Made by a program: the position numbers and the translations under genes
From: a virus
Taxonomy: Duplodnaviria; Caudoviricetes
Strand: one strand, 5' to 3'
IMG/VR virus record: IMGVR_UViG_3300033067_001565
Coordinates: 1-42,488 of that record
Length of the DNA: 42,488 bases
The notes under the pieces: generated by a model
Told to the model about the DNA's origin: nothing
What the model saw: only the letters and a program-made list of their open reading frames with translations
Databases searched by the model: none
Shown: positions 25,604 to 42,488 of the stretch, piece after piece
Layout of the letters: each line of letters opens with the position of its first letter
Numbering within the stretch: the stretch's first letter is position 1

Positions 25604-28138
25604 ATGGCCGATCCCGTTGTAGTGCAGCTCGTCAGTCAAGCCGTGGTCGTCACCATGGCGGCGCAGCAAGGCATCCCGGGAGCGGCGGGTGTGGGCGTGC
25701 CCGCCGGCGGCACGACGGGTCAGGTTCTCGCCAAGGCCAGCAACAACAGTTATGACACGGTCTGGGTGACTGGCGGGGGAGGCGGCGGAGCGTCATGGGG
25801 CGGAATCACCGGCACGCTGTCGGCGCAGACCGACCTGCAGAATGCGCTGAATGCGAAAGCAAACCTGAGCGGAGCAGCTTTCACCGGGGCCATCACCGCT
25901 ACGAATCTTTCAGGCACAAACACCGGCGATCAGACGATCACCCTCACTGGCGAAGTCACCGGATCCGGCACCGGCTCTTTCGCAACGACCGTCAGCAACG
26001 CCGCCGTCATCAGCAAGGCCCTCACCGGATTCGTCAGCGGCGCGGGCACGATCACGGCCACCGACACGATCCTGCAGGCCTTCAACAAACTCGACGGCAA
26101 CGTGGCCGGCAAGGTCTCGAGCTCGCTGCTGGGTCAGGCGAACGGGGTCGCCACGCTCGATGCCACCTCGAAGATCCCGCTATCGCAGATCCCGAGCTCC
26201 ATCCTCGGCGCGGCGATCTATCAGGGCACGTGGAACGCCACCACCAACAGCCCGTCGCTGGCCTCGGGCGTGGGCACCAAGGGCAATTATTACGTCGTTT
26301 CCGTCGCCGGCAGCACGAATCTCGACGGCATCACCGACTGGAATATCGGGGATTGGGCGATCTTCAGCGGCACCGTCTGGCAAAAGGTCGACAACACCGA
26401 TGCCGTGATCTCGGTGAACGGGTTTGTCGGGGCCGTCACCATCAGCACCATCACCGGCAACGCCGGCACGGCCACCGCCCTGCAGAGCGCGCGTAGCATC
26501 AACGGCGTTTCTTTTGATGGCACCGGCAACATCACGATCACGGCTGCACCATCCGGCGCTGCCGGCGGCGAATTGGGAGGCACCTATCCGAATCCTTCGC
26601 TAAGCAACGCCGCCGTGATCGGCAAAGTGTTGACGGGCTACACCAGCGGGGCAGGCACCGTTGCCGCCACCGATAGCATCCTACAGGCCATCCAGAAGCT
26701 GAACGGCAACGACGGGCTGCTTGCGCCCAAGGCCTCGCCGACCTTCACGGGCAATATCACTACCGCGCTCACCTTGGGCAGCGTTGTCATCATCGGCGCA
26801 TCGGGCCTGCTGACACAGGATAACGCCAACTTCTTCTATGATGCGACAAACAAGCGCTTGAGCGTCGCCACGAATAACGATCTGACAGGCACCGACGCAG
26901 TGAATATTTATGGCGAAGTCGATTTTTACCAGCCTAACAGCGCGATGGGATCGGTCGGCGCGACAAGCGTTTCCGGGCCGAGCATATCGTCCTCCCGCGG
27001 CACTGGCCCCTCACCTACCATCAATCTCGACGGCGATCTGCTGGGCGGCACGCAATGGTTTGCCTATAGTGGCGGCACACCGGCCTATAACGCGCATGCT
27101 GGAATTTACGGCACCGCGAAGGGCTCGACGGCAGCAAACCTCGGCGGCCAGATTGATTTTTACACCAAGGTGGATAACGGTGCTTTGACGAAAGTGATGA
27201 CGCTCGCCAATGACGGCGGCGCGATTCATACATCCAGCAGCGCCCTCGCATTTGCCGTCGGGCAAACTGCTGCCGGTGTCAACCCGGCCCTCGCCGTTGA
27301 TTGCTCGACTGCCTCAAGCATCACCGGTGTCATCATCAAAAGCGCCGCAACCGGCGGGGGCATCACACTCACCGCGACAGGCGGCACAAACGAGAACATC
27401 ACCGTCAGCAGCAAAGGCACGAGCGGTGTCGCCACCCTTACATCAGGCGGAACCGCAACAGTCACGGGCGGCTCTTTCGCAAACCTGCTGGCGAACGGTT
27501 CGGGCGTTTCCGTTTCTTCGTCTACCATCACGCTCGCTTATTCATTCCGCGGATTCAACGCGAACCCATGCATCACCTTCACCGGTAACACCGACAGCAA
27601 CCTAACGGCATCAACGGAAGCGCCGAGCATTGTGCTTAACGTCGGACAGGTGAAGACGCACAACACCGGCGCAGTCACCTTGCAGCGCGATTTGATTTTT
27701 ACGCCCAGCACGCATGCCTATGTCGCCGCCAGCGCCGTCACCGAAATGAACGGCATCAACATCGTCGGTGCACCGAAGGCTGGCAATTTCAATACCTCGA
27801 CGAATATATCGGCGCTAAAGATCAGCACCGCCAGCGTCGTCACCGGCACTGGATCGGCTACAAACTCTTATGCGATCTATGCCGAGGCGATGAGCGGAGC
27901 CACCAATAACTATCTCGCCGCGCTCATGGGTGCCGTCGGCATCGGCACGGCCTCGCCGGATGCAAGCGCGCTTCTCGATATCACCAGCACCACCAAGGGC
28001 GTGAAGCTGCCGGTGATGACAACGACGCAGAAGAATGCTATTAGCAGCCCAGCAGAAGGCCTGCTTGTGTATGACGTGACGCTGCATAAATTGAGTGTGC
28101 GAACAGCGGCGGCTTGGGAAACTGTAACCAGTGTTTAA
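25604..28138 (+). CDS. Second long fibre / adhesin-like protein, 844 aa
   Basis: Gly/Thr/Ser/Ala-rich chain of fibre-type motifs (GGTTGQVLAK, WGGITGTLSAQTDLQNAL, GVATLD, YQGTWNA, ITGNAGTATAL, VGIGTASPDASALLDI). Confidence 0.8.
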   Translation: MADPVVVQLVSQAVVVTMAAQQGIPGAAGVGVPAGGTTGQVLAKASNNSYDTVWVTGGGGGGASWGGITGTLSAQTDLQNALNAKANLSGAAFTGAITATNLSGTNTGDQTITLTGEVTGSGTGSFATTVSNAAVISKALTGFVSGAGTITATDTILQAFNKLDGNVAGKVSSSLLGQANGVATLDATSKIPLSQIPSSILGAAIYQGTWNATTNSPSLASGVGTKGNYYVVSVAGSTNLDGITDWNIGDWAIFSGTVWQKVDNTDAVISVNGFVGAVTISTITGNAGTATALQSARSINGVSFDGTGNITITAAPSGAAGGELGGTYPNPSLSNAAVIGKVLTGYTSGAGTVAATDSILQAIQKLNGNDGLLAPKASPTFTGNITTALTLGSVVIIGASGLLTQDNANFFYDATNKRLSVATNNDLTGTDAVNIYGEVDFYQPNSAMGSVGATSVSGPSISSSRGTGPSPTINLDGDLLGGTQWFAYSGGTPAYNAHAGIYGTAKGSTAANLGGQIDFYTKVDNGALTKVMTLANDGGAIHTSSSALAFAVGQTAAGVNPALAVDCSTASSITGVIIKSAATGGGITLTATGGTNENITVSSKGTSGVATLTSGGTATVTGGSFANLLANGSGVSVSSSTITLAYSFRGFNANPCITFTGNTDSNLTASTEAPSIVLNVGQVKTHNTGAVTLQRDLIFTPSTHAYVAASAVTEMNGINIVGAPKAGNFNTSTNISALKISTASVVTGTGSATNSYAIYAEAMSGATNNYLAALMGAVGIGTASPDASALLDITSTTKGVKLPVMTTTQKNAISSPAEGLLVYDVTLHKLSVRTAAAWETVTSV

Positions 28139-37465: not shown

Positions 37466-37525
37466 AATCTTTCTCCTTGGCAAAAGGCGGTTTATAAAAC
37501 GTCGGCTTGATCACCAACGAGGCCG

Positions 37526-37554
37526 ACCATAAAGATGGGCTTTATAGTCGTCAA
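37526..37554 (-). promoter_or_regulatory. Leftward sigma70-like promoter (PL-like)
   Basis: On the minus strand TTGACG-17 bp-TATGGT; overlaps the palindrome ATAAAG-atggg-CTTTAT. Confidence 0.7.
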
Positions 37555-37589
37555 GCATAAAATCGTAAATCTGGCTTTATTGTTTTTTC

Positions 37590-37619
37590 TTGCGTATTTT
37601 TGCCACGTGTGTTTACGAT
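37590..37619 (+). promoter_or_regulatory. Rightward sigma70-like promoter (PR-like)
   Basis: TTGCGT-18 bp-TACGAT upstream of the cro-like gene. Confidence 0.55.
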
Positions 37620-37644
37620 GCGCCTCCCTGACCGGAGAATTCTA

Positions 37645-37839
37645 ATGAAGCTAAAAAAATGGTTTAAGCGGCAAAAAGACCTAGGAAAGCCTGTATCTAA
37701 GGCCGAATTCGCGCGCAGCTGCGGAGTAAGCGCCCCGACAGTGTTTAACTGGCTTAAAGGCGGCATTCCCGACAAGGACACGATGCCGCTGATCAAGAAA
37801 GCCACTGAAGGTGAAGTGACCCCCAACGATTTCTATTAA
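37645..37839 (+). CDS. Cro-like HTH regulator, 64 aa
   Basis: GGAGA RBS; SKAEFARSCGVSAPTVFNWLKGG HTH; IKKATEGEVTPNDFY end typical of Cro/YdaS. Confidence 0.85.
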   Translation: MKLKKWFKRQKDLGKPVSKAEFARSCGVSAPTVFNWLKGGIPDKDTMPLIKKATEGEVTPNDFY

Positions 37840-40080: not shown

Positions 40081-40310
40081 CGTGCAAAACCGTGACCATC
40101 GAAAAAACGAAAATGATCATCTGCAGCCGGGGCCATAGACCTATTCGCTGTAAATGTGGCAAGCCGGGAAATCTTTTGTGTGACTACCCCATCACCGGCG
40201 GCGAGCAGGGCCGCACCTGCGACAAGGGAATTTGCGAAACGCATACCACAAAAATCGGCGACCTAGATTATTGCCCAGTCCACGCTAAAATGGCGGCCGC
40301 GGAAAAATGA
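40077..40310 (+). CDS. Cys/His-rich zinc-finger protein
   Basis: CKCG..LLCDYP..TCDKGICETH..DYCPVH. Confidence 0.7.
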   Translation: MTCKTVTIEKTKMIICSRGHRPIRCKCGKPGNLLCDYPITGGEQGRTCDKGICETHTTKIGDLDYCPVHAKMAAAEK

Positions 40311-40717
40311 GCGGCCGCATCCACCATCGCAAAGGCGCGCACTGGACGATGCAGCGCACCGTTGTGCCCAAGGAAGAGCGCACGAGCCCCGATGGCATCC
40401 TACACCGCACCAAGGCCGAATGCACCCGCTGGAACCGCTTAAAATGGCTGGAGGCGCAGGGCCTGATCATCGACCTTCACCGCGAAATCCGGCTGCCCCT
40501 GCAGAGCCCGGATGGCAAGATCGTCATCCGCGGCATCGAAAGCGGCCGCGTGCTCACCTATACCCCCGATTTTATCTACATGCGCCGTCTTGACGATTCT
40601 TCGGACTGGACTCGTATTTATGAAGATATTAAAGGGTTTATGACAGATACCCAGAAGCTGCGCCTTGCCGTTTTCGAGGCGCTTTATGGGGTAAAAGTAT
40701 TTGTGAACAAGGTATAA
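40307..40717 (+). CDS. DUF1064-like PD-(D/E)xK endonuclease
   Basis: DGILHRTKAECTRW..L, TYTPDFIY and YEDIKG motifs. Confidence 0.8.
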   Translation: MSGRIHHRKGAHWTMQRTVVPKEERTSPDGILHRTKAECTRWNRLKWLEAQGLIIDLHREIRLPLQSPDGKIVIRGIESGRVLTYTPDFIYMRRLDDSSDWTRIYEDIKGFMTDTQKLRLAVFEALYGVKVFVNKV

Positions 40718-40769
40718 GCCTATGTTCACATCCGAAGCATCTGCGCCCGTTTCCTCGGGGGCAAGCTGC

Positions 40770-40868
40770 TGCTGGGGATAGGTTAGCTGCCGATAAGCGT
40801 GTCTCGTGTCACGTTTCCCCAGCATAAAAACACACGAACAACCCGCCGGCAACGGCACACGAGGGGAG
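40770..40868 (+). ncRNA. Candidate structured cis-regulatory RNA upstream of the replication initiator
   Basis: 9-bp outer stem, inner hairpins, and a loop complementary to two downstream sites, one abutting the SD sequence (see findings). Confidence 0.55.
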
Positions 40869-40874
40869 TGAATT

Positions 40875-41624
40875 ATGGCCGACCATTATTACAGAAGAAA
40901 CGCCGATCGCGCACTGGTGGGGATGATGCCCCTGACGCTCGAGGAGCGGGGCGCTTATGGCACCATCATTGATCTGATTTACAGCCGCACAAACCGCCTT
41001 GTCGATGACGACGCGGATCTCTGCTCATACCTGCGATGCGATATCCGCGTCTGGCGGCGAATCAAGGCCCGGCTTTTGGAGCTCGGAAAGATCCACATCG
41101 AGGACGGTTTTATCCGCAACCGACACGCGACCGAAGAGATCAACTCGCGCAAAAAGGGTGGCCGAACCGGGCAACTTCCGCTGGACTTAGGCGACACTTC
41201 CGCCGAACTTCCGGCAAACTTAGGCCGAACTTATGGCCCTACCTGCACCCCTAAGTCGGAACCACAATTAAGTAAAAACAAAGACATGGGCGGCGCGGCC
41301 TCGCACGCGCGCGCAAACAGCAAAGCATATAGTAATAAGAATATTAAACCCCTTACCCCTTTGGAGCGCCCACCGAACGATGATTTAATGAATTATGAAA
41401 AATTGGTGTTGTTTGCTTGCTGGTTGCTAGGGCGTTCAAGCCTAGCCGCATCTGAGCAGCAGATCCTCACCGAATGGCTCGAAGCGGGCTATGATCTCAA
41501 CGCCAGAGCCGGCGATCTTGAACGATCGATGACGCGATATCGAGAACTGAACCATGGCGAACGGCCGAAGACCCTCAGCTATTTCACGCCGATGATGGCC
41601 CAAAAGCACCGGAGGTCGTCATGA
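40875..41624 (+). CDS. Replication initiator, DUF1376/YdaU family
   Basis: YYRRN...LTLEERGAYGTIIDLIY...WRRIKARLLELGKI..DGFIRN N-terminal domain; internal iteron array. Confidence 0.85.
   Translation: MADHYYRRNADRALVGMMPLTLEERGAYGTIIDLIYSRTNRLVDDDADLCSYLRCDIRVWRRIKARLLELGKIHIEDGFIRNRHATEEINSRKKGGRTGQLPLDLGDTSAELPANLGRTYGPTCTPKSEPQLSKNKDMGGAASHARANSKAYSNKNIKPLTPLERPPNDDLMNYEKLVLFACWLLGRSSLAASEQQILTEWLEAGYDLNARAGDLERSMTRYRELNHGERPKTLSYFTPMMAQKHRRSS
41171..41236 (+). repeat. Six 11-bp iterons (putative replication origin)
   Basis: ACTT cores at 41174, 41185, 41196, 41207, 41218 and 41229, followed by A-rich tracts. Confidence 0.75.
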
Positions 41625-42411: not shown

Positions 42412-42488
42412 AGCTCACCGGGTGATGTGTGGTTGTGCGGAGCTCACCGGGTGATGTGTGGTAACTCAACATCTGCTGAACAGCTCGG
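42412..42488. repeat. Terminal direct repeat, right copy (circular-assembly overlap)
   Basis: Identical to bases 1-77. Confidence 0.95.

Follow-up and report, generated by a model that had tools for sequence, protein, structure and literature searches.

The int-alpA motif is reportedly due to Weinberg et al. 2017. In Rfam, the family is catalogued as RF02996 and is typed as Gene; sRNA. The accessible part of the main text of PMC5737381 does not contain the name int-alpA, and PMC12370729, in the portion available, lists int-alpA in STEC genomes without a function. In our literature search, which covered few subscription papers, neither a functional study of int-alpA nor a bacterial leader controlled by its own homodimerisation was found. 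RNA dimers have been raised as possible concentration sensors (PMC9104694, partial text). Retroviral RNAs dimerise through GACG tetraloops or through palindromic loops, for example GUGCAC (PMC5874298, excerpts), and an umbravirus dimer loop is marked by palindromes that are kept via covariation (PMC10484742, excerpts).

Here, we analyzed a leader RNA in a virus record of the Caudoviricetes. The whole stretch of DNA analyzed, 42,488 nucleotides, is called the window. A preliminary description of the locus had proposed a structured leader whose loop pairs with two downstream sites and controls translation of an initiator gene, and had called for a comparison with Rfam and for an analysis of covariation between the loop and its targets. 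We report that the element is a probable divergent int-alpA RNA, that its doubled target is a family trait, and that the loop of its second hairpin is self-complementary in most relatives.

Position and fold of the leader

The features of the locus are as follows.

40307..40717, + strand: upstream DUF1064 / Holliday-junction-resolvase-like gene, with its stop ending 52 nt ahead of P1
40746..40759, + strand: small upstream hairpin; its strand 40750-57 could pair with 40860-67 in the Shine-Dalgarno (SD) sequence; found at this locus only and possibly a chance feature
40770..40824, + strand: three-way junction core, int-alpA-like, with P1 formed by 40770-78/40816-24 and with the junction strands UA, GAUAA and U
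40781..40791, + strand: P2 hairpin GGU-UAGCU-GCC, with the palindrome AGCU in the loop UAGCU; predicted homodimer (kissing) loop
40797..40814, + strand: P3 hairpin, placed by the family register; 40802-09 is the specificity loop, which can pair with site 1 or site 2
40832..40837, + strand: site 1, a putative decoy on which the loop would be parked; its distance of 16 nt to the junction is the family mode
40838..40869, + strand: P4, a stem of 40838-44 with 40863-69 over part of the SD, with an inserted GNRA hairpin and with site 2 as a bulge
40845-56, + strand: GNRA hairpin inside P4
40857..40864, + strand: site 2, overlapping the 5' half of the SD
40861..40868, + strand: SD, 6 nt ahead of the ATG, read from the sequence
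40875..41624, + strand: DUF1376 protein of 249 aa, with a predicted N-terminal winged helix, a disordered linker and a helical C-terminal domain

The stems, loops and sites of the preliminary description were all found in place. The core 40770-40824 folds at -24.7 kcal/mol (z -4.3), and none of 200 shuffles was equally stable. As had been claimed, the P3 loop is complementary to both downstream sites, with 6 bp at site 1 (40832-37) and 7 Watson-Crick (WC) pairs plus one G-U pair at site 2 (40857-64). Site 2 had been said to run into the SD; the overlap is real but limited to the SD's 5' half. The hairpin with a GNRA cap reported between the sites is also present, and it can be placed more precisely inside the further stem 40838-44/40863-69. 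This stem belongs to P4, which the preliminary description did not contain; in the window, P4 leaves ACACGA as a 6-nt bulge. The predicted strength is -11.2 for site 2 against -7.8 for site 1, unless P4 forms, in which case both sites offer the same hexamer.

When the 50-nt tail was dinucleotide-shuffled 5000 times, two sites of at least six pairs arose 167 times; among 3396 tiles of the window, 10 had them. Thus, from this locus alone, the doubled target is suggestive and modestly beyond chance. It is the family data below that make it decisive.

Several other features of the region were noted. One 5-mer occurs twice in P3 (40798-40802 and 40805-40809), so that, once P3 is opened, its 5' strand would be a further possible partner for both targets. 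A strong hairpin at 40702-40730 spans the DUF1064 stop codon (z -5.7; 0/200 shuffles); it could form only while the DUF1064 gene is not being translated. No promoter-like site was found on the minus strand over the element. A tRNA-like reading was rejected because ARAGORN called 0 genes, and a hammerhead-like core was dropped because the first junction strand has only 2 nt.

Relationship to int-alpA RNAs

The comparison with Rfam retrieved int-alpA. The RF02996 model matched the element over its full length (1-71) with 30.1 bits (E 2e-4), below the gathering threshold of 35.8 bits, and at the gathering level no family matches the window element. The novelty that had been implied for the RNA is not supported, since it is int-alpA-like; we class it as a divergent member of int-alpA with a score short of the formal cut-off. 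This assignment, made on sequence and predicted fold, agrees with the junction: the UAG and CGA-A-AG strands of the int-alpA three-way junction P1-P2-P3 are present in the window, and the Rfam consensus ends in site 1. The window differs by an A-U closing pair, a 1-nt last junction and the inserted GNRA hairpin. The Rfam model has 71 positions and stops before P4 and site 2, and its structure line as shown carries no pseudoknot.

We also built a model, R1, from 67 relatives with the window left out, although the pattern used to select these relatives had been derived in part from the window. With R1, the element scored 35.4 bits (E about 2e-9) and the next match in the window had an E of 0.35. 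Thus, the element is the only significant match, i.e. one copy, in the window.

By a 19-nt core pattern, about 1300 viral and about 400 genome stretches were estimated, with 118 and 121 loci, respectively, among the matches listed. The record titles among these listed matches belong to Pseudomonadota, Desulfobacterota, Bacillota, Planctomycetota, Acidobacteriota and Nitrospinota; 45 of the 221 distinct matches did not parse as a junction. When 20 pattern loci were compared with the Rfam cut-off, 16 passed at the site, one was below it and three had no match; these three have the A-U closing pair of the window. An int-alpA match over the cut-off was present in 39/50 viral records and 44/50 genomes. 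The int-alpA-type RNAs, including that of the window, are located before genes of phages and mobile elements.

The preliminary description had pointed to a likeness with the duplicated-target logic of the C4 and CI RNAs of P1 and P4. Membership of that group received no support from Rfam: C4, c4-2 and CI antisense RNAs are absent from the five matches obtained at E up to 10, and the repZ/repBA pseudoknot (PK-repZ) did not match the element. A blastn search of the leader against phages gave only matches at E 7, a window-specific P3 pattern gave three unrelated matches and a tighter subtype pattern none, and the contigs of three runs contained no variant of the leader.

In three loci (L085, L086 and L098), the RNA directly follows phage tRNA arrays. 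Some elements or genomes carry multiple copies (L327, L328; G080, G086, G089), whose P2 loops and P3 codes often differ. Two loci (L492 and L520) keep the core and have seemingly lost the downstream targets; these may be decayed or trans-acting.

Two alternative targets of the P3 loop

The family was assembled from 240 rows, of which 6 at edges, 13 duplicates and 45 unparsed were dropped before counting, and the non-redundant set has 100 members. A target was called when a complement of the P3 loop scored at least 5 in the 70 nt counted from P1's 3' strand. Two such separate targets were found in 84/100 members, compared with 14.8±3.2 for swapped loops (maximum 26 in 200 swaps), with 8 at an upstream control position and with 10 further downstream. 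In a second set, assembled with P2 disregarded, the count was 129/170, against 22.9±4.6 with swapped loops. Thus, the doubled target, as read from these sequences, is a family trait.

Both helices use at least four common loop bases in 79/82 members, so the two pairings are mutually exclusive. Covariation between the loop and its targets was analyzed in 27 alignable relatives. Two-sided changes were observed at 5/7 positions of the loop:site-1 helix, 3/6 of the loop:site-2 helix and 3/4 pairs of P4, and the pairing cells amount to 85% and 71%.

Site 2 ends 4-11 nt ahead of the predicted start in 61/81 members. It overlaps an SD-like tetramer in 66/72, a count made without a control; these 72 members comprise 61 different core sequences. 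Site 1 lies 13-18 nt from the junction in 102/133 members and this distance is not correlated with the length of P1 or P3 (rho 0.13), whereas the spacer to site 2 can be as short as 3 nt or as long as 62 nt and accommodates insertions such as the hairpin of the window. The P4 duplex, formed by the spacer with the SD-to-start stretch, has -4.26 kcal/mol compared with -1.85 for swapped sequences, and reaches -4 kcal/mol or better in 42/72 members, against 11 when swapped. Site 2 sits in the loop of P4 and is mostly unpaired (0.77).

Since the loop covaries with both targets, the loop bases are common to both helices and site 2 overlaps SD-like sequence, an alternative-pairing translational switch is likely for this family. 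This part of the preliminary description is supported. In the comparison of strength, site 1 mostly equals or exceeds site 2 (89 members versus 32, and 37 versus 28 with 15 ties in the other set), and a timer model, which has site 2 always stronger, was rejected. An upstream anti-SD strand as a family trait was likewise rejected (-7.30 own versus -7.34 swapped, n=71); the window's strand, 40750-57, is the strongest of the 71 members. Coupling to upstream translation was found not to be universal.

The display of site 2 in a hairpin loop would also suit a short junction RNA that is released by termination or trimming after P1, lacks site 1 and acts in trans through P2 docking and site 2 binding, in the manner of processed P4 CI RNA. 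The sRNA type given by Rfam points in the same direction, as do U-rich tails after P1 in 33/170 members against 11 at the control position, and CI RNA itself is processed out of the very transcript that it targets (PMC4825925, part of the text). However, a tail with at least five U is absent in 137/170 members. In the window, the linker after the core is A-rich and the search called no intrinsic terminator on the + strand. We consider a released RNA quite improbable.

Self-complementary P2 loops

The preliminary description did not mention the self-complementarity of the P2 loop, which is newly noticed here. A 4-nt WC palindrome was found in 41/59 distinct P2 interiors, compared with 16.8±3.2 in shuffled ones (maximum 30 of 5000). 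The further controls gave 24.1 when the end letters were kept and 10.7 in flanking hairpins. A 6-nt palindrome occurred in 19/59 distinct interiors, against 2.5 when shuffled. When only strictly unpaired P2 loops were counted, 38/53 were palindromic, against 14.2.

These counts refer to a set in which P2 was left free. It was obtained from 357 matches: after 5 at edges, 36 duplicates and 107 unparsed were dropped, 209 were kept on P1 and P3 alone. With one vote per cluster (136 clusters), 90 loops were palindromic, 16 were GACG and 30 were neither. After removal of the AGCU loops, palindromes remained in 60/106 clusters, against 28.8±4.4. Thirteen of the 16 possible palindromic 4-mers are used by P2 loops. 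In 14 clusters, the P2 loop differs between close relatives; 8 of these clusters have a palindrome or GACG in both forms, and in 6 one form has neither. Copies found by Rfam with long P2 stems have loops such as CC-UCAUGA-A. Of the 101 unparsed pattern matches, 40 also have a palindrome, which is more than shuffling predicts; missed members are probably among them, but this control is weakened. These comparisons indicate that the P2 loop is kept self-complementary through sequence change, or is GACG.

The window has the commonest P2 loop, UAGCU. For its core, RNAcofold predicted -56.9 kcal/mol for the homodimer against 2 x -24.7 kcal/mol for two monomers, and a P2-linked dimer is predicted to be favoured by about 7.5 kcal/mol. 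What counts against a dimer is the small size of the window's loop, whose 5 nt offer no more than the 4 WC pairs of AGCU. In co-resident copies, the P2 loops are not always different and several AGCU-AGCU pairs occur. No cis partner of the P2 loop, downstream or in P3, is preferred (3.98 versus 3.99).

The palindrome might have another role, for example as a DNA operator just downstream of a promoter, in a leader that is purely a cis switch or rheostat. Upstream translation, a ligand, a protein, temperature or kinetics would then make the loop exchange between its sites. The loop can reach both of them in cis, and the conserved junction bases could bind a factor. A -10-like hexamer is found just before P1 in 50/165 members, against 6-16 in four other bins, and upstream stop codons are often at most 31 nt away. 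In the window, the upstream stop lies 61 nt from the core, which counts against this reading; the window also lacks the family's promoter at P1, a point against the dimer model proposed below. A DNA operator is less probable: in 45/61 occurrences the palindrome and the flanking stem do not share a centre, which breaks the DNA dyad, and GACG, the commonest alternative, is an RNA kissing loop and no DNA palindrome. Furthermore, the regulated proteins are mutually unrelated. A purely cis mechanism appears unlikely.

Genome context and the downstream gene

The DUF1376 gene lies directly downstream of the leader, as had been noted. Its product matches a primosomal protein in PHROG (E 8e-11), whereas a fold search with a model of the protein gave no match at E up to 0.001. 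The predicted domains fit a phage replication initiator of the O / DnaD-like type, and we take the protein as a likely, putative initiator. The closest DUF1376 homologues (P0002-P0004) have about 50% identity. At 80 more distant DUF1376 loci, which by eye mostly overlap the upstream stop, no significant model match was obtained (best L007, E 0.074). Thus, the RNA is no general feature of DUF1376 genes. At 378-466 of L007, a variant leader precedes a DUF1376 gene; its P2 loop is that of the window, its junction is different and it has a single loop target, at the SD.

Pfam was run on 96 downstream frames of the family. Sixty-three frames, many ended early by the end of the locus, had no match. 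The 33 matched frames comprise 18 of the nuclease type (HNH/GIY-YIG/NUMOD/AP2), 7 initiator-like (HTH_36, DnaD_N, DUF1376, Rep_O), 2 Rha/KilA-N and 6 other proteins.

The ends of the record overlap exactly over 77 nt (1-77 = 42412-42488), so that the record (42.4 kb) is circularly complete. It is nevertheless labelled linear and 70% complete. A ParB-like frame at the record end continues at the record start. Divergent early operons about 120 bp apart lie at 37483-37839, with one Cro-like HTH and no repressor gene. A 109-nt imperfect direct repeat (73%; 25994-26102 / 26603-26711) was observed within a long tail-fibre-like frame.

The preliminary description had considered that the leader might provide immunity in a phage without cI. 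The complete circle with one Cro-like HTH and with no match to a tyrosine integrase, resolvase or S24 peptidase in the window would leave room for an RNA-based immunity in place of cI. However, the window phage shows no sign of lysogeny and has only one copy of the RNA. In addition, family members lie before genes of several kinds, nucleases and antirepressor types among them, and a P22-like phage whose annotation includes CI, Cro and CII carries, in its lysis region, a copy that is 93% identical to member L096. An immunity function is most improbable.

Proposed mechanism

The predicted parts that comparison of relatives bears out, namely the fold, both pairings of the P3 loop, P4 and the palindrome or GACG bias of P2, can be combined as follows. 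A lone transcript would keep its P3 loop parked on the site 1 decoy and would be translated through the weak P4; such parking is likely because site 1 is made first and is usually as strong as site 2 or stronger. Two transcripts would kiss through P2, and this docking would shift the P3 loop from the decoy to the SD hairpin of site 2. With the loop on site 2, the SD would be hidden and DUF1376 translation shut down. The outcome would be a concentration-dependent repression, which is a negative feedback on dose-sensitive proteins. In this tentative reading, which we favour while rating it somewhat short of probable, the leader is a sensor of its own concentration and the dimer formed via P2 represses DUF1376 translation. 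In the cell, the dimer would presumably be coupled to the switch with this polarity, and the site-2 pairing might be made within one transcript or between the two transcripts of the dimer.

A cis pseudoknot would agree with the fixed distance of site 1, and a rigid swapped dimer would do so equally well. Thus, the polarity could be reversed: the monomer would hide the SD by pairing its own loop with site 2, and in the dimer the loops would be captured on site 1, so that the gene is on only at a high transcript level, late in infection. The comparative evidence for both pairings and the P2 palindromes fits this polarity equally. It also has parallels in T4-type homing endonucleases, which are silenced until late by RBS hairpins (PMC2988022, partial text), and in umbravirus genome dimerisation, which activates and does not repress (PMC10484742, partial text). 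However, site 1 is transcribed first and is usually stronger, and a nascent monomer should take it if it is reachable. An initiator is also needed early, as in lambdoid phages. The reversed polarity is unlikely in our judgment.

Returning to repression by the dimer, we lean slightly towards extending it to the whole family. The int-alpA RNAs would then be a widespread protein-free 'RNA quorum' device, in which palindromic or GACG kissing dimers count transcripts and a re-codable anti-SD loop acts as the switch for translation. The products controlled in this way would be replication initiators and selfish nucleases, in phages and mobile elements from many phyla of bacteria.

Comparison with known systems

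With this proposal, an orphan RNA motif of several phyla gains a concrete and cheaply testable mechanism. Pattern scans for one subtype alone gave an estimate of about 1300 viral stretches. If the mechanism is true, it provides a protein-free feedback loop for dose-sensitive genes, and its two re-codable address loops would be a useful synthetic part.

The C4 RNA of P1 is a processed or leader RNA that pairs with repeated targets in its own transcript. P4 CI does the same and acts through transcription termination at seqA/seqC (PMC4825925, available part). Both have a fold unlike that of the present RNA, in which one loop has two alternative targets. In the IncI/IncB repZ pseudoknot and its Inc antisense RNA, a leader loop also pairs beside the RBS of a replication gene; there, one target is used, the pseudoknot activates and a counter-transcript blocks, whereas the present RNA has two targets and no antisense gene was found (PMC8383071, available part). 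The RBS hairpins of T4-type homing endonucleases are similar in that a leader structure throttles translation of nuclease genes, but they are simple and are released by a late promoter, with neither a tertiary switch nor a dimer loop described in the accessible part of PMC2988022.

The closest parallels to P2 are the retroviral DIS, with palindromes in HIV-1 and GACG tetraloops in MuLV (PMC5874298, excerpts), and the umbravirus ATS (PMC10484742, excerpts). As in P2, the hairpin loop is self-complementary through sequence change and has 1-2 unpaired flanking bases, with GACG as an alternative. Those loops serve packaging or subgenomic transcription in eukaryotic RNA viruses, according to the same excerpts, whereas here the process concerned would be a bacterial translation start. 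The resemblance is best regarded as an analogy.
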